From IMG/VR virus record IMGVR_UViG_3300030329_001359, positions 32,001 to 96,000 of that record: a stretch of 64,000 bases of DNA. One strand, given 5' to 3'. Shown here in pieces: positions 1-63,300 of the stretch. The stretch comes from a virus. The notes beneath the pieces were generated by a model, which saw only the letters and a program-made list of their open reading frames with translations, did not search any database and was not told where the DNA came from. The stretch's first letter is position 1; every line of letters begins with the position of its first letter. The position numbers were made by a program, and so were the translations under genes.

Positions 1-2440
1 CGAGGTATCTCATAGAAGGGAATGAGTTCACCCATTTAATAAGTTTCTCAGCACTTTGAGATGTGAACTTGACACCACCTCTTATAAGTGGGGGAAGATT
101 ATTTAACTGTGTAGCTACATTACTATACCCTCCTGTCTTCCCTGTGATGAATGATGTAGACCTTGTATCTGAATCACCAACAGACATCTTAATTCTATTC
201 ACTAAGTAATCAACTACACCTTCAGGGACAACTTGCTGTTTTTCCATTTGCATTAACTTATCTACAGCCTCAACTGTGTCATTCATTAAATCGTTTCTAT
301 GTAATGAAGCAAATATGTTCTTTAAATAATCAGCGTGTACATCAGAATCAGTCCTCATAAAAGAAGCATCAGTCCAAGAAGTAATATGTTTTAAGTTTGG
401 ATTAGCTTGAGCTAAGACCATCCTACTCATAGATTCTATATCATCATCTGTTGTTCTTCCAGATAACCTAGCGTTCATATCTTGTAAATGTTCTAAGCCT
501 TTTTGCATGAGTTTATATTCGTCACTATTTTCATCACCTTGAAACTCTGCAATCTGTTCTTCAAGTCTATCAACAGCGTTATCAAGCATTGTCCATAGGT
601 CTTGCTTTCTAAATATATGAGGGAAATAATTATCTTTCTTTAAAGAGAAAAACGAATCTGGTGTACTGATAGAACCATCTTCATCTGGAGAAGTAGGAGC
701 ACTATAGTTTACTTTAGACCTCATACCCCCTATTGAAAATAGGTTATTCATGAAGTCTTCCATCTCTACTGCATCCATACCAAGTTTCTTTAATCTATTT
801 TCAACTTTAGTTTTTAAACTGTCTAGTTTTTCTCTGTTAGATTTCTCAAAATCTTTAACAGCAGTACCCACAGCTTGATATGTATCTCTCATTTCTCCTA
901 GTGCTTGCCAAAAATTATTATAACCAACCTCTGTCGCAGCTTCACCAGTTGTAGTCTCTTCAATTAATTCTTGAGGAGGTTGTTTTTCTACATACTGAAA
1001 CTGATGCCAAGCTTTTCTTGCGCTACCAGCAAGCATCTCTTTGGTCTCAGGGTCTCTCAATCTGCCATAATATTTTTCTTCTTGCGCTCTATACCAACCT
1101 TCAGCCATATCAATGTTATCCCACTCTGCCATATCATATTCACCATCAGCAAAATTAGTTCTCTTAGCAGGGTCTTCATTTTTATATGGTTCTTTGCTTA
1201 AAAGGATAGCAGTATAAGTTTCTCTACCTCCTACCTCAGTATCTTTAAATAAAGCATACTTATACTGACTACCATCCTTGCCTCTAACAAAATGAACATT
1301 GGGAGTAGACCTTTTTTCATCATTAGTCTCTCCATATTCATAATCTTCTTTCATTTCCTCTAATAAATATGAAACTCTTTTCTTATATTTCTTTTCATAT
1401 TCTCTTCTTTCTTTTGATTCATTTTTTATTGTTCTTTTTATTCCCCTATCCTCATATAAATCAAACTCTGGAGGAATGATTCCAAATTGTACATACCTAA
1501 CTCTACCATCCATTACTTCGTTAATAAAATCTCCAACATAGAATCCAACCATACGATTTCTGACTTCAGTTGCATTAGCATTTAAATGGTCTTTATTTAA
1601 TGCAGATACTTCATCGTTTATAGTTCCATCTTCGTTATAATATTTAACAAGATATACAGGGACTCCCTGTTGAACATCTTCACCTACCAACACAACTCTT
1701 TCACTTGGATTTGGAGCTTCTACTTTGGTAATAAATCCTTCTATACCCCAAGCACTTGCATTATTTAAATTAAATACTGACCTTATTTTAGGGTTGTCCA
1801 TTAGATTGTTTTTAAATTTCTCTAATGTGCTTCTTATTCTATTAGCATAACCCTCATAAGATGAGATTTCATTATCACTAAGTCTCAATCCTTTTCTTAT
1901 TGCTTTCATCATAACACCAAATCTATCTGCCTTGATAGATATAACTTCTGGTGTAAAGGCTGCAACTTCTCTAGGACTTAGCTTACCTTTCTTTAAAATC
2001 TTTTCTCTTTTTTCAGTAATCTCTCTTACTCTTGTTAAAGTAGACTTTACTAATCTTGGACTTTGGAGTATTGTTATTGGGTCTAGATTTAAATTAAATC
2101 TTTTAGAAAAGTATACCCTCCAAGCATCAACAGCATCAATTGGATTGCTATCAAAATTTAATTCTTGAGCTGAACTAAATATATCAGCAGACATCATATC
2201 AAATAATGTGTTATGGTCTGCATACTTAGCTTCTTCACTTCTTAATAACTTAGTAGCTTTCTTTCTTTCTGACCTAGTTACAGCATTATCTAATCTTGCT
2301 TGTGCATTTTTTATTCCAGACTTACTAGGGTATCCAATAAAACTAGCAACAGCAGATATAACATCATTCTTAAATGTGTTTATATCTTGTTGAACTTGAG
2401 TTTCTATACCATCTATAACTGTTTTACAATCTGAAGCCAT
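1..2440 (-). CDS. Large internal virion/ejection protein (partner A), 813+ aa, runs off the left edge; paralog of 57614..60334
   Basis: Absent from the ORF track, consistent with no stop codon before the edge. ATG at 2440 overlaps the upstream TAA (TAATG). Spot translation: MASDCK.., SPREVAAFTPEVISIKADR, KKDNYFPHIF, ANPNLKHIT, LIKWVNSFPSMRYL. These motifs align in order with the 906-aa protein. Confidence 0.8.
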   Translation of the reverse strand, partial: MASDCKTVIDGIETQVQQDINTFKNDVISAVASFIGYPSKSGIKNAQARLDNAVTRSERKKATKLLRSEEAKYADHNTLFDMMSADIFSSAQELNFDSNPIDAVDAWRVYFSKRFNLNLDPITILQSPRLVKSTLTRVREITEKREKILKKGKLSPREVAAFTPEVISIKADRFGVMMKAIRKGLRLSDNEISSYEGYANRIRSTLEKFKNNLMDNPKIRSVFNLNNASAWGIEGFITKVEAPNPSERVVLVGEDVQQGVPVYLVKYYNEDGTINDEVSALNKDHLNANATEVRNRMVGFYVGDFINEVMDGRVRYVQFGIIPPEFDLYEDRGIKRTIKNESKERREYEKKYKKRVSYLLEEMKEDYEYGETNDEKRSTPNVHFVRGKDGSQYKYALFKDTEVGGRETYTAILLSKEPYKNEDPAKRTNFADGEYDMAEWDNIDMAEGWYRAQEEKYYGRLRDPETKEMLAGSARKAWHQFQYVEKQPPQELIEETTTGEAATEVGYNNFWQALGEMRDTYQAVGTAVKDFEKSNREKLDSLKTKVENRLKKLGMDAVEMEDFMNNLFSIGGMRSKVNYSAPTSPDEDGSISTPDSFFSLKKDNYFPHIFRKQDLWTMLDNAVDRLEEQIAEFQGDENSDEYKLMQKGLEHLQDMNARLSGRTTDDDIESMSRMVLAQANPNLKHITSWTDASFMRTDSDVHADYLKNIFASLHRNDLMNDTVEAVDKLMQMEKQQVVPEGVVDYLVNRIKMSVGDSDTRSTSFITGKTGGYSNVATQLNNLPPLIRGGVKFTSQSAEKLIKWVNSFPSMRYL

Positions 2441-5400
2441 TACTTACACCTCGGTTGAATTTGTTGACCAGCTTTCTTATATGCTTTACTACCTTGTATG
2501 CTAAGTTGTGAAAGTTTTTTATACCCAGCCATTGCTTTTTTATTCCCAGTTTGGGCTGAGAAATCAGACTCTTTTAATGCTTTTAAATTCTTTTCAAATA
2601 AAGGTAAAAACTTTGTAAGAACTCTATGACTCATTAAATCAATAGGCATAAGAGTTAATACATTAGTTCTTTTTCCAATCCCTTTTAAAAATAAAGAAGT
2701 CACTAAATCTTGTACACTATCTGGTAATGATAACCAATCTTCTACATGGTCTTCAACAAATTTATTAAGAAATTCATTGTAATCAGCAGATATATGTAAA
2801 GGAACATCATCAGTAGACTCTCTTTGGGCTTCGTGATATATATTCCAAAAAGTTTCATTGAAAGATGTTTTCTTTGTAACCTCACCTTTTTCATTTAAAA
2901 CATCTATTCTATTAGAAACTAAAAATTCGTAAGCCAAAGATAAATCATTGCTACTCCATTTATCTGCATCAAAAGATGGGTCATTACCTAATTCATCTAC
3001 TGTAATACTATGAGCTGCTTGATATGCTTCTTCAGACCAGTCAAGAAAATGGGAACCAGCTTTTTCTACATCTTGTATATCACCTACCATATCATTGTAA
3101 GCAATACCAACACTTGCTATGAGAGATTCACCTGGCGTTATCTTACCATTTGTTTGTATTAAGGCAGGTCTTTCTAGGTTCTTAGGTTTAAACCTCATTC
3201 TTTCTACCATTTTTTGAAATTCTTTTATCATCTGAATACCTAATTCTTCTTTAGGTGCTTTCTTATTTTCATCTGTAAAGAATCTTGATGTAAGGTCTCG
3301 ACTATCCTCTATAATCCTAGACATACTTGCTACATTTCTAGCTGTAGTTAAACCAGATCTTTGCCCACTAAAATTTTGAACTTTAAATACTAGTCTCATA
3401 GTTTTTATATTACCTTTAGTAAGCTCTTCTCCATCACTTCTTTTAAATATTCTTCTAATTACAAAATCATTATTCCAACCAATCTTACTTAATAATCCAA
3501 ACTTCTTATTATCAACAGCCATTTGCAATAGTATTGCTAGCTCACCTTCAACTGTTGTTTTAAGATACATTGGTTCGCCTTTATTATCTATAGATAGACT
3601 TCCAGCCACTTCTCTTTCTTCAATTGGAGCATCTCTAGTTGGAATATCAGATATAATATTAACTTCGTTTCCATCAGCATCAACTATTGTATCTCCATTT
3701 CTATAAATAAGGTCTATTAAATCTCCATTATCTTTATTTAATTGATTTTCATCTAACTCTATATAATCCATAACAACAGAATCACTAGGATTTTTAGCAG
3801 ATATAAAACCACCTTCCATACTATTAAGATAAATCTTAGCTTCTTTATAAGCTAACTGAGTCATAACAACTTTAGCATTTGTAGCCCTACCTTGAGCACC
3901 ACTTACAGCGGCTTCACCTAGTATAGCTGCGTCCCTAGAGTCTTTACTTACATAGGAAGTATTTGAATCTTCTACATCTTCAAGTTTTTCTCCAAACATA
4001 GGAAGAGCAACAACTGTATTTCTATCTTCAAAGGTTTCACTATTTTGCCAATCTTGATATGCTTGTAAAAATTCACCACTAATAAACTCAGCAAATCCGT
4101 GGTCTCCATCCCAGTCACCATCAAGTACCTCAACGACATCACTATTCTTTAGAAACATGGTGTCTCCATGACCACCTTCTACCAAAAATTGTACACGCCT
4201 TGTAACTACACCAGTAACTTTAGCAATAGGTTGACGATGAAGTATAACATTGACACCATCTCCTTGCATCAATGCTTCATTAAGAGCATCTAACTTCTCT
4301 TTTTCATCCATGTTTTTTGAAAAATGTTTCCAAAGACCATTAGCATCCCAGTCTTTTGCATATGGAATAGCATTTACAATAGAGTCTCTATTTAATGAAG
4401 CCCAATGTTCTATAGCTTTAAATCTTACAGTTGAGTTATCATAACTAACAGCTACATTACCATCATCTATAAGATTATTAAGATGCCTTGCTGGTTTTAG
4501 ATATGCATGAGTAGCATTTCCTTTAGCTAATTGTCTACCTTTATAGATACCATCAGTAAAATATCTATTCTTTAAATAAGATACGAATAAATTTGTAATA
4601 TACTTATGAGCTACTCCCTCACCACCAGTTTCTTCAAGTAAGTCCATCCACTTTTCAGCATCTGTTGGTATTCTTCCTTCTTCCCTAGTCCTTTTAACTG
4701 CATTTAAAAATGTCTTAGGATTCTTTCTCATTGATTTAAGCATAGATAAATAATCTTTAGCAACATCACCATAATGTTTCATTATAGCTTTTGCTAAATT
4801 CATAGCTTCTGGAGTGTCAGGGTTTTCAATAATAGAAGGGTCTAACAATATCTCACCGAGAGCTATAGGATGAGCTGCAGTATTAGATGAACCTACTGGA
4901 TTCATAATGATTTTAACATCACTTTCAAGTAGGTCATGTATAACATAGTCATCTCTAAACTTCCCAGCCCTTTGTTTACTTTCATTATTGGTATTCAAGT
5001 GGTCAAATTCACCAGTTACATTACCATTTTCATCTAGTGCTTCAAAATATGTACCATCAGCACCCTCGATAACCCTAGCAAATGGAAAGTTTTCCCCAGG
5101 TCTATAGTATTCTTCACCTTTAAACGGAACCATTTGAAGATGCTTCATTGCTATATAGTCATCTTCTTTATTTTCATTAAATGTTTTATGTCTTATAACA
5201 GTTTTAATAGCTGATAATTCTGGAGTTCCAATATTTTCTCCAAGTCTATTAAACCACCTAGAGCCACTTTGAGTATGTCCATCTCCATCTCCAAGAACAC
5301 CACTTTCTAATACTGTACCATCATCCATAGTTTTTCTAACTATAGTACCTCTTGGAACAATCATAACTTTAGAATTTAAACTACCATCTCCTGTATGTGG

Positions 5401-8400
5401 ATTATAACCATTGGTAAGGTCAAGCCTTAGCCTATTATAAGTATCAAGAATATGTTTTTCATCCATAGCATAAGTATCATACTTGATTGCTTTCATATAT
5501 TCATGTATACCTATAGCTTGTTGTATTCTCATATTTTTAACATATGGAACAATTTCTCTTGCTACTCTTATTTTAGAATCTTTTAAAGTTTCTCCCTCCA
5601 ATAGTTCAGGAGTATAAGTTTTTATAAAATCAACAATCCATTTCTTAACAGCTTTATCTTTTCTCAGCCAATCTTCAAGCATTACTTCAACATGGTCTTT
5701 TCTTAACCTACCTGCTGCAACTTCAGCGTTCAAGTAATTCTCGAAGTCAGCCTCTGTAAAGTCAGCATATTGGTTATCTGCCTTACCCATTAAAATAGAA
5801 TTATCATTTCCACCTTTCATTCCAATAATAAATAATAAATTAGCATCATCTTTGCCATGCTTTATAACTTGTCTTATATAGCTTTTATGTTCAGAATCTT
5901 CTATACTGTTTAACACTTCCTCTGTAAGTTTTGTACTTGCTTGCCAATATATATATTCACCTTCATCATTCAACCATTCATTCATTATATCTTTCGTTCT
6001 AAAATGAATAATTTTTTTATTATGCTTTCCAAGTCTTAAATCTTCTTCAAAGAAATTTGTAGTTTCGTACTGAGATTCTTTTGTTTTAGTGTCCAATCTT
6101 TCTACTGGGGAAACCCTAACTCTTCTTTTTGTCTTTGTTTTTTTCCCTGTTGGTAGTATCAAAGACCTATAAACCCTAGTAAACAACCCTTCTTGTTGCT
6201 TTGGAACATATCTAGGTATCTTATTTCTATCTTTAAGATATGTTATTTTTAAATCATTTAAATCATCTTGATTATATTCTGTTTTTATATTAACTCTATA
6301 TGATTTTTCTTTAGCTTGTTCTTTAGCCCAATCTTTAATAGCCTCAATATATTCTTCAAATGTATCATTCTGTTGAGCCATTTCAGAAAGAATTGGTACT
6401 TGAGCTTTTGATATATGTACACCAAATACTCTATGAAAAAATTCTGATTGATGTAAATCTGAAGGAATGTCACTAGAGCTATGCCTACTGCTATTCACAC
6501 CAGTATCATTGCCATCCTCATCAGTAGCTCCTTGTTCTTGAAACTTTGCATAAGGGTCATACTCTAATCCTACCTTACCTGCCCATCTACCTTGATAAAA
6601 CTCTTCAGCAACAAAGTCGCCAAGAGCATCGTCAGGTACTTCCCTGAATATATTTCTTAATCTATTAGCAAATTGTTTTAACCATATTTTAATCCTGTTA
6701 AGAATGCTCCTGTTTTGTATCCTATTGGCATAATACTCGCCTATGTATTGTACAAGTTTCTCTTCACTTCCAAATTGATTAATAGCTCTTTTAATTAAAT
6801 CTGTATCTTTAAGTAATCCTACATATATATGAGCATATTCGTGTGGCATAGTATCTAAAGTAGCATCTGTACTCGACCATAAGGCTACATTACTTATAGC
6901 AACACCAACAGCTCTCTTACCATTCTCTTCCAGTACTCCTTCAAATGTAGCATCTGTTATGTAATTACCAAAATGTCTACGAAGTCTTGATACAATTTTT
7001 TCAGCAAGTTCAGCATTAGAAGTTATTTTAGGTAATGGAGATACTTTAACCTCTTGGAACATATTTATATTTTCATCATCATCCTGTTCAATATCCCCTG
7101 TATTAGTATCACCAGTTTCTTCTTCTGTATTACTAGCCATATTACCAAGAACTGTATCTAGGAAATTACCTATTGTTTCATCATCTGGCTCTTCTCCAAG
7201 ACCTATTGGAGTTTCATCCTTTTTTTCTTTTACTTCTTCTTTTGGAGGAAGTTCTTGAGGTATGTTTTCTGAAAGTTTATTAGGCTCTATAATTGAATCA
7301 ACAAAAGCTTTATCAAAATCTAAAGATACACCAGATTCAGGTGTTAAAGATGTTATCTTACCTCTCTTATTATATTTAACTTGGAATGGAAATATTGCTA
7401 TCTTCTCAACTCTAACACCATATTGATTCTCAACTAATCGTTTATAAGCACTTAATTGAGCTTCATGTTGTTGTTTTTTACTTCTTTCTATTCCATTGCC
7501 CTTCCATACTTTAGTGTAAGCCCCTGTTTTTGTAGATGCTTTACTTGTTTTGACATCCCATATTTGTATATTACCAGTTTTAGGATTCAAAACAAACAAG
7601 TCTACTTCCCCAGCTACACCACTTCCATCATCCCAAACAATAATATTATTAGCGAGTACCCTAAGACCTTTGGCATCTATTTTTTTCTTAACTTCTCCTA
7701 AAGCTCTCATTAAGTCATCAAATGCATCTTTAGACATATCTATGTCTGTATGTACTGGTACCTCACCATCTGTAAAGAAAGCACGAACAAGACCATCAAC
7801 TGTATTACCTGCTTTGATTGCACTTTTGTCTGGTTCTCCACTATATGTAGTACCTATAACATTTGAAACCCTTTGGTAACTAACTCCATCAATTAAATAA
7901 TCTTTAGTTCTTTGTTCAGCTCTAAATTGATTTTCATTTACTTCAGATTCTAATTCTTCTATTGATTCTGGAGCTGTAGCTACGTCAGGAGCACCTTCAG
8001 GTAATTCAGGTTTACCTTCTATATCTGCTGTTGTAACATCATCTTTAGATTTTAAAGTTGCTCTAGGTCTTGCATATCTTACACCCCCAACTATTCTTCC
8101 TTTAATAGCAGATATAAGATTAGACCTTTCATCTGAAGTCATATCATCTATGTTTCTTTTACCAGTAACATTTTCAGAAAAATCCATAAACTCTTTATTA
8201 TCATCCCAAGCTATGCCCTTAGCTTCGGCTTCTCTATGTACATCTTCAGCAGTAACTTCAGCAGGAGTTGTTAAAGTTTCAACTTTTCCTTGTGAAGCTT
8301 CTATATTTGATAACATTCCCTGCAATACCTTTACATTAGCAATCTGGTCTTCCCCAATTTTCCTATTCATTGCTGATGTTCCAACTTCACGATTAATATA

Positions 8401-11007
8401 ATTAAGAATTGCACCTCGCCTACCTCTTTGTACTTCGAGAGAATATTCAATACCTTTTTTAATATCAACTCCATTACCTTGAATATCAACAGTCGAAATA
8501 AACTTTGCTGGTAAGCTTTTAAATACTTCTTGTGATTCTGGAGAAGTAAGTTCTTTTGGTATTTCAACTTCTGCTAAAGTTTCAACTTCTCCTTTTAAAG
8601 CTTTCTTAAGCATTTCTCTTTCATTAGGGAGCATTTTAGAAATTGAATCTGTTCCTATAAGTTTCTTAGCAAAATCTTTAAATTCTTTACTATCAATACC
8701 TCCTTCAAATTTATTTTTTGCTAATTCGGCTATAGATTCTGTTGGTGAATCTGGTGCTTTATCTGGCTCTCCAAATATATCAGCTTCAGTTACTTCATCT
8801 GTAGTAACTTTAGGTTCAGGCTTAGGTGTTACCTTTTCTCTAAGAAGAGCTTCTACTTCTTGATTTTTATCTTGCCTAACCATCTCCTCATTTTTAGTTA
8901 AAGGCTTACCTTCTGCTATCTTATTAGCTATATTTACAAGTACACCTTGAGGAACTTCACCAGTTTGTACAAATTTCTTTCTTATAGATTTAGTTATAAC
9001 TTGAGGTTTTACTTCTTTAGGAGCTTTTGTTTCAACATCTGGAGTAGTTTGTTCTTGTATTTGAGAAGGTGTAACATATTTAATCGGTCCAGTTAGTTTA
9101 CCATCTTCTCCAACTTCTCTTATCTTATACATTTTTGGACCAGCACCAAGAACAGCAACTTGTTTACCTTCAAAGCCTTGTATATTTTTACCTTCAAGCT
9201 TGTCAGGAAGAGTAATTGTTTTACCTTTTAATGTTTTGTCTGGTACATTTACTTTAGGTTTTTCTTCTGCAACATCAGCACCAGTAATCTTTTTAATTAT
9301 AGCCCTCTGAGCTGCTTCAATATCTTCTGGTTCTTCTTCTAATTGTACACCTATATCTTTATCTGAAGGTTCTTCTTTGGGAACAAATAAAGATTCATCT
9401 ACTGGCTCTTCTAACCAAGCTGGGGAAAAGTTAATATCTGGAGCTTCAGGTGACTGAGTTAAATCTGCTGGAGCTTCTTTCTCTACAATGCTACCCTTTT
9501 GAGCAAATGCTTTAAGAGCATTAATCATCTCTTGAGTATCTTCTGTATTTATCTGTCTTTGATTTGGATTTTGTTGGTTTAACTTTTCAGTAGCTAACCT
9601 TAATATTGAATCTCTATCTGGATGATTTTCTATTGCAGATATAACAGTAGGGTCATCAACAATTAATGAAAGAATTGCATTTGAAGAAGACTGTGCTTGT
9701 TTATTTTTTGCAATAGACTTAGAAGTTTTATCATCTCCCTCTTTAAAATCATCCCAAAATTCACCCATTCTTTCTCTTGGGTTAGCAAGAGCAGATAAAT
9801 AATCATCTACAACATCAGCACTTGGTGGTCTAGCATCTGGATCATCTGGGTCAAATGGTTCAAAAGCATTAGCTGCAGCTTTATTCTTAACAGACTCTAG
9901 TATTCTTTCTGATTGCCTTTGAGATACAGCTTTACCCCGCCCAGGTAAAAATATTCCAAATGGAACACCCATGACACCACCACCATAAGCTTCTTCTAAT
10001 ACACCTTCTGTTTTAGCTATTTCTGTTAGTGTCTTTAAGAACTCTCTATTGTTTTCAAATCCATGCTCTGTTGCATATAAACTTGTTTGTTCTAATGTAG
10101 CTTGAGACCATTCAGTTCCACCTTCAATCATAGCTTTTTCTACCATATTGGTCAATCTAGCTACGTTATTCATACCCATTCTTGCGATTGTTCCCTTATT
10201 AGCCCCAGACTCTACAAGAGATTCAGTAATTTTTCTCATCATGGCTTTCTCTGGAATCATTTCTTTAAACCCAGGGACGCCTTTCATCAATGACCTAGCA
10301 CCAGTTCTTTCAAGCATTGAAGCTAAGATACCATATGTAGTAGCCGCTAACCCAGCGTATTCCCTAGCTTCTTCTGGCTCCATACCCATATCATCAACCA
10401 TTAAATTCATTTGTTCTATATAATTACTAGAGCTTTCTAATAAGAACATAGGAGCAAGAGAGGCAACTGTTGCTGTCAAAGACGTACCACCAGTAGAAGG
10501 AGCAAGTGCGATACCCATAGCAGTGCCAGCAACACTAGTTGCCAAAGAAGGAATAACTTCAGACATAGCCCTCATAGTCGTGTCAAATCCAGTCCAAGAA
10601 GGCTCATCTTCTTTCCATGAATAATAAGCTTGAAGTTCAGGGTCTCTAGCTACGCTTTCAGCTACAGACTCATTAGCCCATTTTCTTAAATCTTCAGATG
10701 CTTTTACTGCCCATTCAGAACTTGAAAGAGCTAAAGCATTTCCAACAGAACCAGCCACCAAGTTATGACCCATAGTATCTGCTGTATGTATCATTCTTTT
10801 TAAGAAACCAGCAGAATCTTTCTTCCCTTCCATTTCATACCTAGCAACACCAGAAGGCAAAGAACGAAGATGTTGTCTTCGTATCTCAGCCATCGTTTCA
10901 TCTGTGGCTTGTATTACTTGTTGTGGACTAGGTGTTTCTCCAAGCTCTTGAAACCTTTGAAGAACTTGAAGCTTAACGGTCATTCTATCTGGCAGACGTT
11001 CAGCCAT
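2440..11007 (-). CDS. Giant virion polyprotein (2855 aa): hydrophobic N-terminal region, acidic linker, PD-(D/E)XK nuclease, zincin-like HExxH domain and C-terminal two-barrel RNA polymerase (RNAP-1)
   Basis: Beta'-like barrel VILHRQP...VLDGDWDGDH (DWDGD at 4102-4116). Beta-like barrel DGDG/AIKTV/AMKH/FDHLNTNNESK. Nuclease AGEVDL..IWDVKTS..QLSAY (~7300-7900). HEYAH at 6829-6843 followed by EEKLV. Confidence 0.85.
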   Translation of the reverse strand: MAERLPDRMTVKLQVLQRFQELGETPSPQQVIQATDETMAEIRRQHLRSLPSGVARYEMEGKKDSAGFLKRMIHTADTMGHNLVAGSVGNALALSSSEWAVKASEDLRKWANESVAESVARDPELQAYYSWKEDEPSWTGFDTTMRAMSEVIPSLATSVAGTAMGIALAPSTGGTSLTATVASLAPMFLLESSSNYIEQMNLMVDDMGMEPEEAREYAGLAATTYGILASMLERTGARSLMKGVPGFKEMIPEKAMMRKITESLVESGANKGTIARMGMNNVARLTNMVEKAMIEGGTEWSQATLEQTSLYATEHGFENNREFLKTLTEIAKTEGVLEEAYGGGVMGVPFGIFLPGRGKAVSQRQSERILESVKNKAAANAFEPFDPDDPDARPPSADVVDDYLSALANPRERMGEFWDDFKEGDDKTSKSIAKNKQAQSSSNAILSLIVDDPTVISAIENHPDRDSILRLATEKLNQQNPNQRQINTEDTQEMINALKAFAQKGSIVEKEAPADLTQSPEAPDINFSPAWLEEPVDESLFVPKEEPSDKDIGVQLEEEPEDIEAAQRAIIKKITGADVAEEKPKVNVPDKTLKGKTITLPDKLEGKNIQGFEGKQVAVLGAGPKMYKIREVGEDGKLTGPIKYVTPSQIQEQTTPDVETKAPKEVKPQVITKSIRKKFVQTGEVPQGVLVNIANKIAEGKPLTKNEEMVRQDKNQEVEALLREKVTPKPEPKVTTDEVTEADIFGEPDKAPDSPTESIAELAKNKFEGGIDSKEFKDFAKKLIGTDSISKMLPNEREMLKKALKGEVETLAEVEIPKELTSPESQEVFKSLPAKFISTVDIQGNGVDIKKGIEYSLEVQRGRRGAILNYINREVGTSAMNRKIGEDQIANVKVLQGMLSNIEASQGKVETLTTPAEVTAEDVHREAEAKGIAWDDNKEFMDFSENVTGKRNIDDMTSDERSNLISAIKGRIVGGVRYARPRATLKSKDDVTTADIEGKPELPEGAPDVATAPESIEELESEVNENQFRAEQRTKDYLIDGVSYQRVSNVIGTTYSGEPDKSAIKAGNTVDGLVRAFFTDGEVPVHTDIDMSKDAFDDLMRALGEVKKKIDAKGLRVLANNIIVWDDGSGVAGEVDLFVLNPKTGNIQIWDVKTSKASTKTGAYTKVWKGNGIERSKKQQHEAQLSAYKRLVENQYGVRVEKIAIFPFQVKYNKRGKITSLTPESGVSLDFDKAFVDSIIEPNKLSENIPQELPPKEEVKEKKDETPIGLGEEPDDETIGNFLDTVLGNMASNTEEETGDTNTGDIEQDDDENINMFQEVKVSPLPKITSNAELAEKIVSRLRRHFGNYITDATFEGVLEENGKRAVGVAISNVALWSSTDATLDTMPHEYAHIYVGLLKDTDLIKRAINQFGSEEKLVQYIGEYYANRIQNRSILNRIKIWLKQFANRLRNIFREVPDDALGDFVAEEFYQGRWAGKVGLEYDPYAKFQEQGATDEDGNDTGVNSSRHSSSDIPSDLHQSEFFHRVFGVHISKAQVPILSEMAQQNDTFEEYIEAIKDWAKEQAKEKSYRVNIKTEYNQDDLNDLKITYLKDRNKIPRYVPKQQEGLFTRVYRSLILPTGKKTKTKRRVRVSPVERLDTKTKESQYETTNFFEEDLRLGKHNKKIIHFRTKDIMNEWLNDEGEYIYWQASTKLTEEVLNSIEDSEHKSYIRQVIKHGKDDANLLFIIGMKGGNDNSILMGKADNQYADFTEADFENYLNAEVAAGRLRKDHVEVMLEDWLRKDKAVKKWIVDFIKTYTPELLEGETLKDSKIRVAREIVPYVKNMRIQQAIGIHEYMKAIKYDTYAMDEKHILDTYNRLRLDLTNGYNPHTGDGSLNSKVMIVPRGTIVRKTMDDGTVLESGVLGDGDGHTQSGSRWFNRLGENIGTPELSAIKTVIRHKTFNENKEDDYIAMKHLQMVPFKGEEYYRPGENFPFARVIEGADGTYFEALDENGNVTGEFDHLNTNNESKQRAGKFRDDYVIHDLLESDVKIIMNPVGSSNTAAHPIALGEILLDPSIIENPDTPEAMNLAKAIMKHYGDVAKDYLSMLKSMRKNPKTFLNAVKRTREEGRIPTDAEKWMDLLEETGGEGVAHKYITNLFVSYLKNRYFTDGIYKGRQLAKGNATHAYLKPARHLNNLIDDGNVAVSYDNSTVRFKAIEHWASLNRDSIVNAIPYAKDWDANGLWKHFSKNMDEKEKLDALNEALMQGDGVNVILHRQPIAKVTGVVTRRVQFLVEGGHGDTMFLKNSDVVEVLDGDWDGDHGFAEFISGEFLQAYQDWQNSETFEDRNTVVALPMFGEKLEDVEDSNTSYVSKDSRDAAILGEAAVSGAQGRATNAKVVMTQLAYKEAKIYLNSMEGGFISAKNPSDSVVMDYIELDENQLNKDNGDLIDLIYRNGDTIVDADGNEVNIISDIPTRDAPIEEREVAGSLSIDNKGEPMYLKTTVEGELAILLQMAVDNKKFGLLSKIGWNNDFVIRRIFKRSDGEELTKGNIKTMRLVFKVQNFSGQRSGLTTARNVASMSRIIEDSRDLTSRFFTDENKKAPKEELGIQMIKEFQKMVERMRFKPKNLERPALIQTNGKITPGESLIASVGIAYNDMVGDIQDVEKAGSHFLDWSEEAYQAAHSITVDELGNDPSFDADKWSSNDLSLAYEFLVSNRIDVLNEKGEVTKKTSFNETFWNIYHEAQRESTDDVPLHISADYNEFLNKFVEDHVEDWLSLPDSVQDLVTSLFLKGIGKRTNVLTLMPIDLMSHRVLTKFLPLFEKNLKALKESDFSAQTGNKKAMAGYKKLSQLSIQGSKAYKKAGQQIQPRCK

Positions 11008-22841: not shown

Positions 22842-23107
22842 GCTTCTGCTTCTACCTCTTCAGGTTCTAAAGCTTTTTTAAGATCTGCAAAACCTTTTTG
22901 AAACTTCTCTACAAATACTTTTTCACATTCAACTAATTGTTGTCTCATGAAAGCATTTGTATTCAGCTTATTTTGTATGTCTCTTACATGGTCTTGGTCT
23001 AATGCAACCTGACCTGCAAGTTTTTTTTGTGAATCAGTCATATCATCGATAAAAAAGTCTTCTCCATCGAGTTTTAAGACTGGCTTTTCTTTTTGTTCTT
23101 TAGCCAT
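22838..23107 (-). CDS. Hypothetical protein (89 aa), tail-fibre associated
   Basis: Strong SD; LKLDGEDFFIDDMTD followed by coiled coil. Confidence 0.6.
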   Translation of the reverse strand: MAKEQKEKPVLKLDGEDFFIDDMTDSQKKLAGQVALDQDHVRDIQNKLNTNAFMRQQLVECEKVFVEKFQKGFADLKKALEPEEVEAEA

Positions 23108-23129
23108 TTCGTGACTCCTTGTTAGTTAA

Positions 23130-23414
23130 TTAAAGTTTTTTGAAATCTGCTATTGCTTTTGCTAATTCATCACTTTCTGCTTTTGCTCTTGCCATATCTT
23201 TATCATAACGAGCCTTTTCTCCTTCTAAATCAGATAGAGACCATTCTCGTTTTGAATCATCTAAGGCTTCGCCAGTTTCACTATCAAAGCGTTTCTGAGC
23301 TAAGACAACATGAGCTTGTTTTGTTACATTGTCATCGCTATCTTTTTCTTCAGCAACCTTTTCAAATGCAACCTTCTTTGCAGTTTTTAGTGTACTATAT
23401 TTAGACCATCTCAT
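23130..23414 (-). CDS. Hypothetical protein (94 aa)
   Basis: Co-oriented, gap-filling ORF. Confidence 0.6.
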   Translation of the reverse strand: MRWSKYSTLKTAKKVAFEKVAEEKDSDDNVTKQAHVVLAQKRFDSETGEALDDSKREWSLSDLEGEKARYDKDMARAKAESDELAKAIADFKKL

Positions 23415-23416
23415 TA

Positions 23417-23656
23417 TTAATCCTTTTTACTATCTTCATACGCTTTTTTAACTGCATCTGTCCATAGACTATTTGCCAATGCTTTTAATTCATCAGATTC
23501 ACCACTTACATCAGCATCTGGCATAAATGATGTTCGGTTATATGAAAATGATATTTCTTTACCATCTTCTTCAATCGCAGTTCTTTTTCGTTGCTGAATA
23601 ATTTTGTACTCACCACGAACTTCATAATCGTATGTTACTTTCTTTTCTAAAGCCAT
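23417..23656 (-). CDS. Putative tail fibre assembly chaperone
   Basis: IEEDGKEISFSYNR..DVSGES..LWTDAVKKAY; this gene type typically follows fibres ending in a DDYEEG domain. Confidence 0.55.
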   Translation of the reverse strand: MALEKKVTYDYEVRGEYKIIQQRKRTAIEEDGKEISFSYNRTSFMPDADVSGESDELKALANSLWTDAVKKAYEDSKKD

Positions 23657-23729
23657 TCTAACTCCTTGTTGTTATTCGTTTCCAACTATATATCTATATA
23701 GTATTGAATTATAAATCTTTGATAGTTTA

Positions 23730-26700
23730 TTATACAGTATAAGTAACATCAACAGCAACCGCCCAAGCCCCATCTACATCTGACTCATCTAAATAATTTC
23801 TATCTCCATTATCTTCAATTTCTACTAAAGTAAAAAATGCTTCACCTTCTTCAATCGAAACCATCACAGTTCCATCTATCGTTCCTCCGTGATTATACAA
23901 TACACAGCTTCCATACGACCTTGCTCCTAACCCAGTTGCATTTCCTGATGTAAACGGCAACGAAACTCGAATTGTTCCCGATGAAGAGTTGTCTGAATCA
24001 ATACTAAGAAGTCCTTGCACATGAACAAGCCTACCTATTTTTGTATATCGAAAAATATCATTTGTACTATTTACAACAAAATTGCCAGAGGTTGTTCCAG
24101 TCACAGTAGCCGTGTGTTCACCTTCTTCATAATCGTCTTGCACATTTGCTCCACCGCTTGCTGATTGAGTTGCTGGAAATGATACACCAGAACAATGAAC
24201 ATGAGCACCACCATCTGAACCTGCATAAACATTCAATATAGATGCATTACCAAGTGTTACTGAGTTGTCTCCAACGCCTTGTGCATCTCTACCAATGACA
24301 ACTTGATTTGTAGAGTCAGCGGCAGATGTTCTTGCATTATCTCCTATGACTATATTTTGAGTACCACTTGTCAACTGTACTGTATCGTGTCCTGCTTGAT
24401 GCCCAATTAAAATATTTAAAGCCCCTGTAACTCCATAACCAGCCCTATATCCTACCGCCACATTCCCATTGCCACAATTTGCAGATAAGGATTGATAGCC
24501 AACGGCAGTATTAAGTCCTCCATCATCAGTTGCATCTAAACATTGATACCCCACAGCAGTGTTCCCAGCACCAGAAGTAATCGCATTTCCTGCCGCATAT
24601 CCCACTGCAACTGTCCCATCAGCGGCAGAAGTCAGGTTTGCTCCACCAGCATCTCTCCCAATTATGACTGCATTATCTACGTCTGTTGTGGCACTTCCTG
24701 CGGCTTGTCCGATGATGACATTGCCCCCTCCAGAAGTAACTGCTACTCCTGCACTTGCACCAAGTGCTACATTATTATCGCCTGTAGTCAATGCACCTAA
24801 AGAATGTCTCCCTATTGCGACATTGTAATTTGCCCCATCAAGAGCCGCATCCATAGTATAATTTCCAATAGCAACATTATAACTTGATGCTGTATCAGCC
24901 CATGTACCACCACCAGAATCAACTCCAATAAATATATTTTCGGTGCTACCTAATGAATTATTACCAGCATTGGTATCATCCATTGCACCATAGCCGATAG
25001 CCATATTGTATCCACCAGTCGTATGAACTAAACCAGCGTTGTGACCAATAAAAGTTGAGTATCCAGCGGTTGTGAGAGCATTCATAGCCGCATATCCAAG
25101 TGCTGTATTACCAATTCCAGATGTTAAACTTTCACCAGCATCACGCCCCACAATAGTTGTTCCATTAGCATTGTTGTGATTGATGGCTGTTCCAGCATTG
25201 CGACCTATAAGCACACAATCAGATGTTGTAGTTATCGCATCTCCTGCGTTTACTCCAATAACTGTATTTGAACCGCCTGTACTAAGAGATAACAAAGCAT
25301 TTGTTCCGAGGGCTATATTATTATCACCTTGAGTCAATGCATTTAAGGTTGCATATCCAACGGCTGTATTATTAGTAGCATCATCTAAGGTTGCACCACC
25401 AGCAGAAACATAACCTATAAAAGTATTATAATTTGTACCTGCATCTATGTTTAAACCTGCGGAATGCCCGAAGACTGTATTCTGTGTACCAGCATCATTA
25501 TTAGATAGTGAGATTCGGGAGTTGATGTCAAATTTTGCAACAGATGTGAAAGTAAAAGTACCAGTACCAGTTGCGGCACTTCCAAATGTATGAACTCCAC
25601 CTGCTTGGATATATTCACTTGCTTCATCATCACTTATTTTTGTCCAAGCAGAACCACTATGATAAGCATTTTGTAATATTTTTAATTCGCCACTTGCACC
25701 AGCAGATGTTGTTGCTTCGATTGCTCCATTACCACCAATTTGGACAGCAGACATAGCACTATTCCAAGTTTGTGGCGTAACTCCAATTCCGACATTGCCT
25801 GAACTATCAATTCTCATTCTTTCAGTCCAACTACCAGAACCATCAGCAGTGGTCAGGAATCTAATCCTACCCGGCATATCATTTGCTCCGGGTGTACCAT
25901 CTACCTGTATTTGAATACCACCAGCAAATGAATTAAAATCCCCATCTCCGTCATAACCATATGCTTGAGCTTGCCACAAAGTGTCTCCATCCTGAACAAT
26001 CGCTGGAGAAGCCTTTGAACCACGGGCATGTCTTCCCGCAAAATTAGGTTGACCAGCATCATTTCTATACGATGTAACAAATATTTCTGATGGCCCCCCA
26101 TCCTTTACTAATTCCAGTTCAGCCGCTGGAGAATTTGTATTAATTCCAATGTTGCCATCAGCAGTAATTCTCATTTTTTCAGTTTCAGTATCATCCTTAG
26201 ATGTTTTAAAACTTATAAAAGCAGACCTTGTGCTTGAGCCTGAAAAATTCTCTTCTCTTCCAACTTGTATTTTAGCGGCTGTTCCACCATTATGTCTAAA
26301 TCTAAACCCAACTAATTCATCTGTTGAATCTCCAGCGGCACTATTATCAAGAATTATTTCTGTAGCACCACCATCTGATGCACTTACGATATGAAGAATA
26401 TCACCTGGTGCTTTTGTGCCGATTCCAGTATGTCCCGACTCATTTACATATATTCCATTACCATCATCTGGGTTATCATCAATACCAAAATACGCAGTAT
26501 CTGCTGAGTTTAATAATAGCCCCATGTAAGCGGCTTTACTGGAGTGACCAACTCGTATTATTGAATGTTCTCCATTAGCATCTATCGCACTTTGAAAATT
26601 CGCTACTGTTACATCTGAATTTGCTGTAGTTTCGACATCTAATTTAAAATCGGGGCTTGTATCGCCAATTCCGACATTGCCCAATGCATCGAAGCGTACC

Positions 26701-28358
26701 CTCTCAATTAAACTTCCACCTTTAGACCTTCTTCCTGCGGGGTCGGTTGTTCCTCCGGGTTGAGTATAAAAAGCAAGACCACCAGCATATGAAACATTAC
26801 CTGAATTAGTATACATATCAACGCCTGCGATATATCCTTGAGTCCAGTAATCAGAACCATTGTAGGTACGAAACTCAAGTAACCCTCCAGGATTATCCGT
26901 AGCACTTTGTTGGTTTATAATCAATCCAGGTTTTTCTGAGCCATATGTTGTAACAGTTCCTTGTGCTACGCCAACTATATCAAGGCTACCCTCTGGATCA
27001 TTGATACCAATACCGACATTGCCATTAGAACCAATTCTCATCCTTTCACTTGGAGTTGCAGAACCATCAGGCGAGGTTTTAAAAACCAAATCTGCTGGCA
27101 TATCTGTGCCTGTTGATGATGTTGCTATACTAACAGCAGTTATTTCAGCCCCGAACCTATCGTTTGAACCATCAAAACCAGAAAAGTATAATGTACCTAA
27201 TAGGTCTCCACCAGCAGTATTAATTGCTGACCTACTACCAACCGAACCTCTGGCTTTTGCAAAATGTAAGACCGGTCCTGTTACAGTATTTCCAGACATT
27301 TCCATTGTAATATTTCCTGCAACGGCAGCAACACCAGTTGCAACGTGAAGCCCTGTTGCTTGTATTGCAGATGCCGCTGAACCAATATTGACATTACCAT
27401 TATGGTCAATGGTCATTCTCGCATCAAGTGTAGCACTACTATTATCTGTTGTATGAAAAACTAACTTAGTACCTTCAGCACTACCCTCAGTCCACGCTTC
27501 AGTTGTTAATGCTTCTATTCTTGCACCATATCCAAAGTTTGAATGAGCATTCTCTGTTCCTACAAATGAAATTTGCCCTAACCTTTCTCCAGATGTTATC
27601 GTACTATCATTTCTAATTATATTTATACCAGCACCAGAAGTTGAAGATAAGGATAAGGTGTCTTGTGGATTTGAATGTCCGACACCTATATTTGCCCCAG
27701 TAAAATAAAAAGAACCAGCACCAGTATAAAATTGCATTCCATTAGCATTATTATAACTATTAAAGTACCCCCAACCATTATCATCGTAACATCCAGTCAG
27801 TATGTAATTATCACCAGAACCATGAATTTTCAACCTTTTAGTTGTTCCCTCACTTGTAAGACCGACTCCATCAATATCAATAGCATATCCTGTACTATCT
27901 TGTGTAATCTTTAATGCTGTAGCACCAGTTGCACTTGCATGGTCATTATGTACAAGCATCACATTTCGAGTATTAGTATCAGATGAATTACTTGCAACTC
28001 TTAAAGCATTTGCAGTAGTTAAACTATCTGCATCTATGTTGACAGCATCTCCAGAGGTATTAGTTGCACTTACATTAATAGCCTGTTGATTTGTTCCTTC
28101 GTGGTCTATATTTAAGGCTATAGCATTCGCATTTTGGTCAATCAAAACAGCAGTACCAGCACCTGTATTTTGTTCTACCTCAAAAGCAGTACTTGCGGCA
28201 GTATTAGTAATCTTCATATCTCCAGTTAATACTTCTGAATATGAAAATCCTCCACCACCATTTACAGTTAAATCACCATCAATGGTAACATCACCAGATA
28301 TTGTACCCCCTGCCGAGCCTATGTCATGTGTAATTGCGTCTGCGAAACCTCTATTCAT
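23730..28358 (-). CDS. Tail fibre / receptor-binding protein (1542 aa)
   Basis: Repeated ERMRI-x-GNVGIG modules, many N(T/V/I)A(V/I/L)G beta-roll repeats and a C-terminal DDYEEG..YTKIGRLVHV domain. Confidence 0.85.
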   Translation of the reverse strand: MNRGFADAITHDIGSAGGTISGDVTIDGDLTVNGGGGFSYSEVLTGDMKITNTAASTAFEVEQNTGAGTAVLIDQNANAIALNIDHEGTNQQAINVSATNTSGDAVNIDADSLTTANALRVASNSSDTNTRNVMLVHNDHASATGATALKITQDSTGYAIDIDGVGLTSEGTTKRLKIHGSGDNYILTGCYDDNGWGYFNSYNNANGMQFYTGAGSFYFTGANIGVGHSNPQDTLSLSSTSGAGINIIRNDSTITSGERLGQISFVGTENAHSNFGYGARIEALTTEAWTEGSAEGTKLVFHTTDNSSATLDARMTIDHNGNVNIGSAASAIQATGLHVATGVAAVAGNITMEMSGNTVTGPVLHFAKARGSVGSRSAINTAGGDLLGTLYFSGFDGSNDRFGAEITAVSIATSSTGTDMPADLVFKTSPDGSATPSERMRIGSNGNVGIGINDPEGSLDIVGVAQGTVTTYGSEKPGLIINQQSATDNPGGLLEFRTYNGSDYWTQGYIAGVDMYTNSGNVSYAGGLAFYTQPGGTTDPAGRRSKGGSLIERVRFDALGNVGIGDTSPDFKLDVETTANSDVTVANFQSAIDANGEHSIIRVGHSSKAAYMGLLLNSADTAYFGIDDNPDDGNGIYVNESGHTGIGTKAPGDILHIVSASDGGATEIILDNSAAGDSTDELVGFRFRHNGGTAAKIQVGREENFSGSSTRSAFISFKTSKDDTETEKMRITADGNIGINTNSPAAELELVKDGGPSEIFVTSYRNDAGQPNFAGRHARGSKASPAIVQDGDTLWQAQAYGYDGDGDFNSFAGGIQIQVDGTPGANDMPGRIRFLTTADGSGSWTERMRIDSSGNVGIGVTPQTWNSAMSAVQIGGNGAIEATTSAGASGELKILQNAYHSGSAWTKISDDEASEYIQAGGVHTFGSAATGTGTFTFTSVAKFDINSRISLSNNDAGTQNTVFGHSAGLNIDAGTNYNTFIGYVSAGGATLDDATNNTAVGYATLNALTQGDNNIALGTNALLSLSTGGSNTVIGVNAGDAITTTSDCVLIGRNAGTAINHNNANGTTIVGRDAGESLTSGIGNTALGYAAMNALTTAGYSTFIGHNAGLVHTTGGYNMAIGYGAMDDTNAGNNSLGSTENIFIGVDSGGGTWADTASSYNVAIGNYTMDAALDGANYNVAIGRHSLGALTTGDNNVALGASAGVAVTSGGGNVIIGQAAGSATTDVDNAVIIGRDAGGANLTSAADGTVAVGYAAGNAITSGAGNTAVGYQCLDATDDGGLNTAVGYQSLSANCGNGNVAVGYRAGYGVTGALNILIGHQAGHDTVQLTSGTQNIVIGDNARTSAADSTNQVVIGRDAQGVGDNSVTLGNASILNVYAGSDGGAHVHCSGVSFPATQSASGGANVQDDYEEGEHTATVTGTTSGNFVVNSTNDIFRYTKIGRLVHVQGLLSIDSDNSSSGTIRVSLPFTSGNATGLGARSYGSCVLYNHGGTIDGTVMVSIEEGEAFFTLVEIEDNGDRNYLDESDVDGAWAVAVDVTYTV

Positions 28359-31989: not shown

Positions 31990-32004
31990 TTAATCTTATC
32001 TTTA

Positions 32005-32073
32005 AATAAGGCTATGCTGTAACTCAATATTAGAAAGGAAGCTAAAAAATACCGAGAAACAGCATGCCTTATT
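32005..32073 (-). terminator. Long stem-loop after the head genes (terminator or processing site)
   Basis: AATAAGGC(T)ATGCTGT / ACAGCATGCCTTATT inverted repeat with an inner stem. Confidence 0.55.
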
Positions 32074-32081
32074 ATTTTGTT

Positions 32082-32504: not shown

Positions 32505-32515
32505 GATTTACCTCC

Positions 32516-33313: not shown

Positions 33314-33321
33314 CTACCTCC

Positions 33322-34911: not shown

Positions 34912-34947
34912 CTTTTTTAACTCCTTATTTTAATTAAGGCATTTAGC

Positions 34948-35805: not shown

Positions 35806-35828
35806 TTGCTATCCTTTTTATTTATTAA

Positions 35829-35858
35829 AATATAATATATATAAAATACTATTCACAA
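35829..35858 (-). promoter_or_regulatory. Possible sigma70-like promoter for scaffold/capsid
   Basis: TTGTGA-N18-TATATT in the only gap between portal and scaffold. Confidence 0.35.
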
Positions 35859-35865
35859 CTAATCT

Positions 35866-38106: not shown

Positions 38107-38125
38107 TATTTTTTATAAAAAAAGA

Positions 38126-38515: not shown

Positions 38516-38526
38516 TTTTTTCTACC

Positions 38527-57582: not shown

Positions 57583-57615
57583 AAAGGGGTAGCTTGTATA
57601 GTGCCCCTTTTTTTT
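57583..57615. terminator. Terminator between convergent operons (probably bidirectional)
   Basis: AAAGGGGTA...TGCCCCTTTTTTTT. Confidence 0.75.
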
Positions 57616-60334: not shown

Positions 60335-63300
60335 TAGCAAATCCCATTTTCGTTACCATGCCTAGATGATGTTCTTTTCATAGCCTTTCTATTTGATTGT
60401 AAGGATTCAGGGCCTCCGTATATATCACCAGCAATAGACTCTTTCCTTCCTGTAAACAAATTCCTACCATCATGTGGTTGACCATAAAACAACTTTACTT
60501 GATTCATCTTATGTCTAAAATACGAATTTATACCATGTACTGGTACAATTTTACCACTCATTGTAAGAGCATTTCTAGGTATTCTTCTCATTTCAACAAG
60601 AGATGATAGATTAGCTATAAGGTCAAGACCTCCGCCTGGAAGTTTATATGATATATAATCAAGAGATAAATCTCCTGTTAGACCTAATACATTAAGAACA
60701 TTTTCATTTACTTTCTCAAATTGTTTCCATTCTCTTAAATCAGCAGGTAAAGATTCATTTATAGATAGTCTTTGAGCAATCGTGTCTACTTTTTTAACTA
60801 AATCAGATTCATATTCTATTAAAGGAGAACCACCTTCTGAATCTTTAAATGATAAAGCATTATAATTTTTAAGGTCTATTTGCTCAAAATTATACTTAGG
60901 GTCTATCTCACCTCTAAGCCATGCTAATTGATTGCTTATAGGTTTAGCAATCTCTATCATTAAATGGTCAGATAAAGTTGTATTTAATCTTTCAAAGAAC
61001 CTAAGTCCCAATGTAATAAATTTAGTTTGACTATTAACTTTATTAAAACCAGGCATCATTGTACCATTATGATATGTAACAGTATTAGTAGAAATTTTAG
61101 GTGTCATGAGTGAAAGTACAAATTGCTTACCAAGACCAGGGTGACTTCCTTCCCAGTCATAATATAATTTTTCTAACTTTATTATTGCTTCATTCATTAC
61201 AGAATTAGCATCCATGTCATCTGTTAATCTATTATTAAATAACTCCCACCATTTCTTACCATATTCACCTTTGAATTGTCTAATATCTTGTTCCCATTTC
61301 ATAGCTGTAGATTTTTCTACAGTTGCAGGATTAAGACCTACACCAGTAAGCCTTGAAAGGACATTGTATGTAGCAAGTATTTGAGCATAATCATCTGAGT
61401 TAACACCTCTTATCTTTAATCCAAGTTGTTTATTTCTTGTATCCCATATACTGCTAGTTATTTGTGGTTTTATTTTTTCTATAGCTTTAAATCTTTCACT
61501 TCTACTTCTTATTTTTGAGAAATCATGAGTTTTACCATATTTATCTGTCCATGTTCCTCCTGACGCTAATGTACGATAAATCTGTCTTAGTATTCTAGTT
61601 CTTACAGCCTTTTGAACACTTTTACTAGCCATTACCTCTTTAGTTAGGTCTGATTTTAAATCTCTAAGCCTAGCATGGCTCTCTCCAAAACTACTAGCCA
61701 TCTCATGGTTACCGTTCCTTTCCATCCTTCTTTGAGACCTTCGATATCTACGCATTCTATAGTCTATGCTGTTTATAGCATTTAACTTATCAAAATCAGA
61801 ACTGAATCCTTCAACTATCTTTCTTACGGCTCCGTCAACATCTCTAGTATCTCCTAGTAAAAAGTCATATATAAATCCATCTGTTTTATATTGAACATCA
61901 GGGTTGACCTTCTTCATTGACATTCTATCCATGCCTGCAAGGTTAGCAATCATTCTATCAGCTGCTATCATTCCAGTATTTTGACCAGCAGCATCTACAC
62001 CAGAAACTGCATCATCAAACCTAGTGTCTCTTAATCTAAATGGGTCTACAAAACGACCTTGTTCTTTAAAAATAGAATCAATATCATCACCACTCCATTT
62101 ATTTTTAGAAAGACCTCTTCCATTTCTCAATCCCCAATAAACATATCTATTTAAATTGCTCATTATATAAGAATATCTTTGAGTATAATCTATGAGAGTA
62201 TCGTAATCAACTTTCTTTTGTTCACCACTTTCAAATACACTTGTACGAAGACCTAAGAATCTTTTATAGGGCGTCAAAGCTAAACCAACCATATCTTGTT
62301 CAAGCTTATCAAGCCTAACTCCATTATCTACCCAAGATTTAGTTTTTTGGTCATACGTTTGCTTAGAGAATATACCAGGGTATGTTTCACCATCTCCAAA
62401 TAATAACTTACTCTCCCACTGCTTGTCGAATGTACTTTTATCATAACCTCTTCCACCAGCATCAACAATTCTTTGTATATCTGTAGCTAATAAATATTCT
62501 ACTTCTTTTATTTTATCAGCATCTCCTAATACTATTCTTCCTCTATCTAGTTTTATATTAAATCCTTCAACATCAGTATAATTTGCTCCACGATATGACT
62601 TTAAAAATTGTATTGTATTTTTGGCTTTAACAACAATACCTCTATACAAAGAACTATTTGCTTCGCTAAAATTATAATTCATTAAAGCTTTTCCATTAAA
62701 TGGATTTAAACCATGTATTGATGTTCTTTGTTGTGTGCCTTTTACAGAAGGAACTTCACCAGACTTACTATCCCAAAATCTTAATATATCAGAAGGTGTA
62801 TCCCACCAGTAATTTATCTTGTCTATATCAAAATCCATCTCAAGTCTAAACCATCCATCAGCATGATTTATTCTAGCTGCATTACCAGTTAAATCACCAA
62901 ATCCTTTTAACCCAACAATAACTTTATCAGATGAACGAGTTGTAGGTGTTCTATGAGCAACCAGTGCTATTTCATATCTTTTCCCTTCTATGCCATCGTT
63001 AAAAGCTTCAACAGACCTATAAAGGTCATTGAGTGTAACAGCTTGTTTACCATCTAATAAAGATTGAATTTCTTTTGATAATTCATTAGCTCTGACTATC
63101 TTATCTTTTGCTGTATAATTATGCTCAATAAATCTTATTCTTTCTGGAGCAACTAACTTACCTTTATTTGTAGCATCTATTTCTATCTGTCCATATGTCC
63201 ATACATCTCTTGATACAATATCAGCAGGATTACCTGACCTTTCTCCATTAAGCCATTCAGTTTTAAATAATGTATTTCTTAAATGACCTTTTGTTCCAAA

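Follow-up and report, generated by a model that had tools for sequence, protein, structure and literature searches.

Two giant RNA polymerase cassettes in a 111-kb viral record that very likely joins the genomes of two related marine podophages

The stretch of DNA considered here, the window, is 64,000 nucleotides (nt) long and comprises bases 32,001-96,000 of one 111,116-bp IMG/VR virus record (IMGVR_UViG_3300030329_001359); coordinates within it are given as window positions, those in the whole record as scaffold or genome positions. The window carries two cassettes, in each of which a gene for a giant RNA polymerase (RNAP) is followed by a gene for a large partner protein: RNAP-1 with partner A, and RNAP-2 with partner B. 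All four genes are on the minus strand. RNAP-1 (window 2440..11007) is a giant of 2,855 amino acids (aa) with a PD-(D/E)XK nuclease-like region at aa ~1039-1242 and the motifs HRQP...DGDWDGD. The lists of open reading frames (ORFs) and their translation place the N-terminal 813 of the 1,259 aa of partner A at window 2..2440; the gene continues past the left window edge and ends at its own stop (genome 30661). RNAP-2 (2,993 aa) has its C-terminal 1,221 aa at window 60334..64000, with DFDID at aa 2161-2165, and extends to its own ATG at genome 101315, which is preceded by a 343-aa gene. Partner B, a protein of 906 aa that is predicted to be all-alpha-helical, occupies window 57614..60334. In genome coordinates the two cassettes span 30661-43007 and 89614-101315.

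In both cassettes the polymerase gene and the partner gene are joined by a TAATG stop/start overlap on the minus strand. At window 2438..2442 the TAA stop of RNAP-1 (window 2442-2440) overlaps the ATG of partner A at 2440 (AAG TAATG GCT); at window 60332..60336 the stop of RNAP-2 overlaps the ATG of partner B at 60334 (TGC TAATG GCT), from which the N-terminus of B reads MACTPK. The initial annotation had pointed out this coupling at 2440 and 60334, and our reading of the sequence bears it out. A TTG at 60340 was also considered as the start of partner B and was rejected in favour of the ATG within the overlap. TAATG overlaps were found at seven gene junctions of the window (2440, 13104, 13622, 19236, 39416, 53366 and 60334); the overlap is the usual gene joint in these phages, and no mark of polymerase/partner pairs. 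A simple terminator scan found no terminator downstream of A or B.

The two cassettes are ~56 kb apart, each at the equivalent position in a complete gene set. An all-against-all ORF comparison gave ~35 collinear pairs at 35-89% aa identity, spanning the entire record. Nearly every gene is present twice; there are two TerL (83% identical), two TerS, two portals and two capsid genes. Where alignable, the two units have ~75% nt identity.

The ends of the scaffold indicate how the two units are connected. The record is a linear scaffold with a gap of 10 N at genome 277-286, 190 nt from its left end. Its first 85 nt are found again, at 100% identity, at 57,715-57,799, and its last 32 nt, also at 100% identity, at 55,076-55,107; the former equal the last 85 nt, and the latter the first 32 nt, of a segment that we designate S (window 23076..25799, no strand assigned). 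Both scaffold ends are thus in exact repeats bounding one single-copy 2.7-kb segment, and scaffold ends in exact repeats flanking S are the signature of a figure-8 assembly graph. Scaffold 1-57,714 then corresponds to a phage P' of about 57.7 kb, bearing RNAP-1 and A, and scaffold 55,108-111,116 to a phage Q' of 56,009 bp, bearing RNAP-2 and B. There is a single cassette per phage, lying at the 3′ end of the late operon, whose last gene is A in P' and B in Q'.

We conclude that the record is very likely a composite scaffold, put together from the genomes of two marine podophages that are related but distinct. P' and Q', circular or permuted, would share S as a near-identical tail-fibre segment, and the assembler would have walked both loops of the figure-8 graph that S created. 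Segment S, where the P' and Q' genomes join, consists of an intergenic stretch and the C-terminal part of a tail-fibre ORF (window 23730..28358, minus strand, 1,542 aa), identified by PHROG tail-fibre matches. As this ORF spans the 85-nt exact repeat at which the genomes join, it is probably a chimera of a Q' N-terminal part and a shared or P' C-terminal part; the exact 1,542-aa protein is on record from this scaffold alone. The 10-N run at the left end breaks the frame of the second tail-fibre copy, beside the junction region. Another place for a chimeric joint, a direct repeat formed by the intergenic regions between A or B and the early gene next to it, was considered and rejected, since the two regions have no mutual similarity and both adjacencies occur naturally in relatives.

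Relatives with a single unit were found on both sides. One of them, the independent contig G006, has a length of 49,891 bp and a single TerL. Gene by gene it follows P', also across the point where scaffold ~57 kb would close onto ~2 kb. The TerL of G006 has 96% identity with the P' copy (at 11.7 kb) and 85% with the Q' copy, and its early genes are 77-88% identical to those of P' as against 34-58% for Q'. After its early genes come an A-type partner, an RNAP-1-type giant, the genes found at 43-55 kb of the scaffold and then those found at 2-7 kb. Two other relatives, G002 and G005, have one RNAP-2-type giant and one B-type partner each. A fourth one, G007 (IMGVR_UViG_3300030376_002414; 58,280 bp, one TerL, CheckV 100% complete), has one giant and one A-type partner. 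Both termini of G007 fall within its giant gene, of which 1,630 aa are encoded at the start of the contig and 1,657 aa at its end; although listed as linear, it has the look of a complete single-unit genome in circularly permuted form. Two cassettes were seen in none of these four relatives, the ones examined in full, and from the CheckV estimates for relatives one arrives at genome sizes of about 53-57 kb. Among contigs of other assemblies, those with proteins near-identical to A, RNAP-1, RNAP-2 and TerL reach at most 57,073, 56,702, 51,118 and 54,675 bp, respectively; all of these contigs, more than 30 in number, are of 57 kb or less, and only the present record is longer.

The cassette itself is conserved. 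The partner gene is the last gene of the late operon and directly follows the giant RNAP gene in both units of the scaffold and in all nine relatives examined; across these nine, giants of the DGDWDGD type are paired with A-type partners and giants of the DFD(I/G)D type with B-type partners. Homologs of A of 1,244-1,314 aa directly follow giant genes in five IMG/VR contigs. The polymerase and its partner form a real, conserved module of the late operon, which is present as a unit.

The relation between the two partner types is a remote one. Pairwise BLASTP of A against B was not significant (the alignment containing the motifs listed in the initial annotation had 22% identity over 265 aa, E-value 8.5). 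We built family alignments of A and B from IMG/VR loci and a protein collection. Shallow profiles gave a probability of only 2.7%; profiles of 38 and 56 sequences gave an E-value of 3.4e-5 over 229 columns. With the B profile widened by remote members from an exhaustive hidden Markov model (HMM) search, A 600-1211 aligned with B 276-711 at 95.6% probability (E-value 1.1e-8, 426 columns), as compared with an E-value of 0.41 for a control pair of unrelated profiles. Profile-profile alignment had been proposed as a check on the suggestion that the ordered motifs of A and B reflect homology; its significant outcome upholds the suggestion and indicates that A and B are true but very distant homologs. 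In an independent search of a protein atlas, A and B both fell near one and the same set of LPD39- and LPD38-bearing clusters. In Pfam, a profile match to LPD38/LPD39 (PF18857/PF18858) was absent for B and for 38 members of the A family, and the scan of these 38 members produced nothing consistent. An hmmsearch with the B profile returned only B-type proteins among its top 150 matches and is uninformative on whether A-type proteins surface. The B family comprises 569 representatives at 50% identity. A, B and RNAP-2 had no tblastn match among 50,697 phage records, and the partner family appears to be without a match in cultured phages.

For the polymerases, sequence scans gave little. BLASTP of RNAP-1 against RNAP-2 was not significant; PHROG and Pfam scans of all four proteins yielded only the PD-(D/E)XK match and no RNAP family; searches of PDB sequences with single proteins and with profiles returned nothing. 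We modelled aa 1480-2560 of RNAP-2 with AlphaFold2 (AF2), using 22 homologs, and obtained a model with a predicted local distance difference test score (pLDDT) of 81.5. The top Foldseek match was 6vr4, the virion RNAP of phi14:2 (E-value 2.3e-7), followed by QDE-1 (E-value 5e-6), plant RDR2 and the largest subunits of cellular RNAPs. In an exhaustive VIA-align scan QDE-1 was first (Z 13.5 over 519 aligned residues), with Pol I/II at Z 11 and 6vr4 at Z 9.7 over 604 aligned residues; the top 16 rows were all RNAPs. The model of RNAP-2, the one of the two giants to which this applies, has the double-psi beta-barrel polymerase fold, and it points to a two-barrel RNA polymerase of the crAss/QDE-1 type in the C-terminal half of the protein.

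Both giants carry a DxDxD metal-binding motif with R-x-P about 35-40 residues upstream. In the RNAP-2 family R643, P645 and D682/D684/D686 are invariant in 22 sequences (R-x-P and DxDxD); in the RNAP-1 family R759, P761 and D799/D801/D803 are invariant in 10 sequences (R-x-P and DWDGD), the aspartates of the metal motif being D2298/2300/2302 in the numbering of the RNAP-1 protein. Alignment of the two catalytic regions by hhalign covered 368 columns at an E-value of 7.7e-5 and brought the R-x-P and DxDGD motifs of the two into register; the result was weaker for the RNAP-1 profile against the alignment of full-length RNAP-2 (E-value 0.02), and shallow profiles of 5-6 sequences gave a probability of 11%. 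These data suggest that RNAP-1 is of the same polymerase class as RNAP-2; what speaks against it is that the link between the two consists of motifs and an hhalign match at 62% probability. Taken with the homology of the partners, the two cassettes appear to be extremely diverged counterparts of one ancestral module.

The four proteins also share a peculiar distribution of cysteines. Each has a single one, located at the end where polymerase and partner genes meet: residue 2854 of 2855 in RNAP-1, 2993 of 2993 in RNAP-2, residue 5 in A and residue 3 in B. Cysteine makes up 0.81% of the rest of the proteome, and ~23 would be expected in each giant. The terminal cysteine is present in 20 of 21 RNAP-2-type giants (all 21 having a single cysteine), in 5 of 5 RNAP-1-type giants, in 55 of 56 B-type partners and in 34 of 38 A-type partners. 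The proteins encoded just upstream of the two giants (window 11017-13104, 695 aa; genome 101316-102347, 343 aa) have no cysteine at all; we detected no similarity between them, and they may be further cysteine-free ejected proteins.

Several other explanations of the record have to be weighed. The scaffold could represent a real molecule, a ~113.7-kb heterodimeric genome or a stable tandem of diverged units, with both cassettes and two copies of S. The deposited scaffold does link both units, IMG/VR and CheckV list it as one record that is 100% complete, and from the assembly graph by itself a single large circle is indistinguishable from two small ones: a de Bruijn graph with S fits equally a single circle of this length holding S twice. 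There are further points that weigh against two separate genomes. No independent contig with the closure of P', the Q'-S junction or the 85-nt repeat was found in IMG/VR and the metagenomes of the Joint Genome Institute (JGI); in a protein-based scan around the 85-nt repeat the best match was only a relative at 88% identity; the repeat lengths of 85 and 32 nt do not fit one k-mer size. On the other hand, every core gene of a heterodimer would be redundant, the four fully examined relatives are all single-unit (58 kb for the CheckV-complete one), and the contigs with near-identical proteins in other assemblies end at the length of one unit. Also, a capsid built for ~56 kb would not be expected to hold twice that DNA. 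A real molecule of double length is, in our opinion, improbable. Still further from what we observe is the explanation proposed in the initial annotation, an ancient tandem duplication of the polymerase-partner cassette alone within one circular genome (RNAP-1, A, an unseen gap, RNAP-2, B), with A possibly fused to RNAP-2 across the gap. It accounts for the homologous partners and for the presence in one record of two cassettes, both joined by TAATG; the duplication, however, extends genome-wide, the cassettes sit far apart at the same position of complete gene sets, and the single-copy relatives reproduce the one-unit topology, while the scaffold ends lie in the repeats flanking S. The map is a linear scaffold with a 10-N gap instead of a circle, and the sequence of the 'unseen gap', now obtained, consists of 47 kb of ordinary phage genes, including a second full gene set; A and RNAP-2, with their own stop and start codons on either side of it, are not fused. 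What survives of the duplicated cassette is the shared ancestry of its two versions, seen in the partners and in the polymerase catalytic regions; duplication within one genome finds no support, and we give this explanation hardly any credence. With the whole ~56-kb genome present twice and relatives that have single units, the cassettes are very probably counterparts in two phages, not paralogs.

Even with two phages accepted, the cassette types could be unrelated modules swapped by recombination, with convergent likeness of their motifs. Blank BLASTP results for RNAP-1/RNAP-2 and for A/B, despite TerL proteins that are 83% identical, would be understandable in this case, and the cassette types need two changes on the TerL tree. 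The well-supported branches of this tree fit a single change, though, and module exchange cannot be demonstrated by comparing the tree with cassette type. The profile-level homology of the partners, the catalytic regions aligned with their motifs in register and the single terminal cysteine common to both types are all contrary to an independent origin, which we likewise judge to be quite unlikely.

The reading as two joined genomes has consequences for use of the record. It is listed as one complete 111-kb virus and is almost certainly two genomes; it would be wrong to derive from it 'one phage with two polymerases' or a duplication internal to a genome. Concatenations of diverged units are likely to escape k-mer checks for concatemers. 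Composite viral contigs from figure-8 graphs of co-occurring related phages resemble the present case in having two complete syntenic units, about twice the expected length, ends in shared exact repeats and a gap beside the junction; unlike them, the units here are diverged.

As to the role of the partner, the AF2 model of B is all-helical (pLDDT 75; predicted template modelling score, pTM, 0.74). Its matches in BFVD, with E-values of 1e-9 to 1e-4, are helical domains of polyvalent proteins and annotated internal virion proteins of podophages; for the latter, E-values are 1e-4 to 1e-5 and TM-scores 0.2-0.4. Partner A has two C-terminal hydrophobic stretches, 1163-1181 and 1226-1244. Analogy with known systems makes it most likely that the partner is packaged and ejected along with the polymerase, and an ejection or channel-like role is plausible from the model and its structural matches. 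Two observations on B count against such a role: its PDB matches, which include T7 gp15 and the PhiM1 ejectosome, are weak (7k5c at Z 5.5, 9jyy at Z 6.0, 8vb2 at Z 5.0, which is below the chance level for helical proteins), and it has no strongly hydrophobic segment (Kyte-Doolittle 1.4 or above).

One can propose the following scheme. The giant would be a polyvalent protein, packaged in the virion and ejected, whose RNAP half would start early transcription. The TAATG overlap would set a fixed proportion of the helical partner to the giant. The partner would be packaged and ejected together with it and would probably help to build or anchor a conduit across the envelope. The giant and the partner may be held tail-to-head via their single terminal cysteines; judging from the cysteine positions, a tail-to-head disulfide or a shared metal site between them is an attractive hypothesis. 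A bolder version, which we put forward tentatively and hold to be possible rather than probable, is that of a covalently tethered ejection pair. Both cassette types would have lost every other cysteine, and a disulfide between the C-terminal cysteine of the giant and the N-terminal cysteine of the partner would link the two into a chain of ~3,900-4,100 aa that traverses the tail in order; it would be cleaved in the reducing cytoplasm, freeing the polymerase from the envelope-bound partner. Such a module would exist in at least two allelic types, diverged beyond recognition by BLAST, on otherwise closely related marine phage backbones of ~56 kb. The cysteine pattern offers in this way a concrete idea of how an enzyme of ~3,000 aa could be handed over through a phage tail.

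Among known systems the nearest is the block of crAss-like phages, represented by gp65-gp66-gp67 of Cellulophaga phage phi14:2 (PDB 6VR4). It also has a giant virion protein with a two-barrel RNAP of the DFDID type, and its structure is the best Foldseek match of the RNAP-2 model; the PD-(D/E)XK region of RNAP-1 resembles the 'RNAP subunit' of crAss001. In crAss-like phages the neighbours of the RNAP are virion proteins, sometimes fused with it into one polyprotein, and a zincin-like domain is found nearby (bioRxiv 10.1101/2020.03.07.982082). The phages described here differ in genome size (~56 kb versus ~100 kb), in their TerL, whose closest counterparts, at ~25% identity, are the terminases of small podophages and Mu-like phages, in the absence of a sequence-level match to crAss RNAP models or PDB sequences, in the DWDGD motif of RNAP-1 and in the partner family.

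The Schitoviridae (N4, DEV) have an operon gp50:gp51:gp52, in which an ejected virion RNAP (vRNAP, gp50) of ~3,500 aa is accompanied by slender alpha-helical ejection proteins that build a trans-envelope channel (PMC13434306). The order of a giant RNAP and then a helical partner is the same here; however, the N4 vRNAP is T7-like and single-subunit, not two-barrel, there are two small partners (644 and 150 aa) instead of one of 900-1,300 aa, and neither a sequence match nor a significant fold match to gp51/gp52 was found. With the T7-like core or ejectosome (gp14-gp15-gp16) the partner has in common the all-helical structure, the BFVD matches to annotated podophage internal virion proteins and the position of its gene as the last one of the structural operon. 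The T7 gp15 tunnel (7k5c) and the T7 core (9jyy) are matched in the PDB only weakly, at Z 5-6 and below the significance level for helical proteins; unlike the T7 system, no lytic transglycosylase domain was found here, and the neighbour is an RNAP, not gp16. By analogy with these systems the cassette would be a further form of the ejection module built around a virion RNAP, carried by uncultured marine podophages of ~56 kb. It would extend the crAss-type virion RNAP to a large uncultured family of such phages, in which each type of polymerase is invariably accompanied by one helical partner of the corresponding type.

Apart from the cassettes, P' and Q' differ by a rearrangement where the early (plus-strand) module ends (genome 25061-30343 versus window 52545-57398). 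A pair of genes for proteins of 271 and 355 aa comes after the 450/154-aa pair in P' and before it in Q'; G006 has the P' order, while G002 and G005 end like Q'. We also saw an island of 250 nt with 93.6% identity between window 50723-50972 (genome 82723-82972) and genome 24108-24357. It encodes an ORF of 83 aa (89% aa identity) within an early region that is otherwise 35-55% identical, and it may represent either a recent exchange or a small gene under strong constraint.

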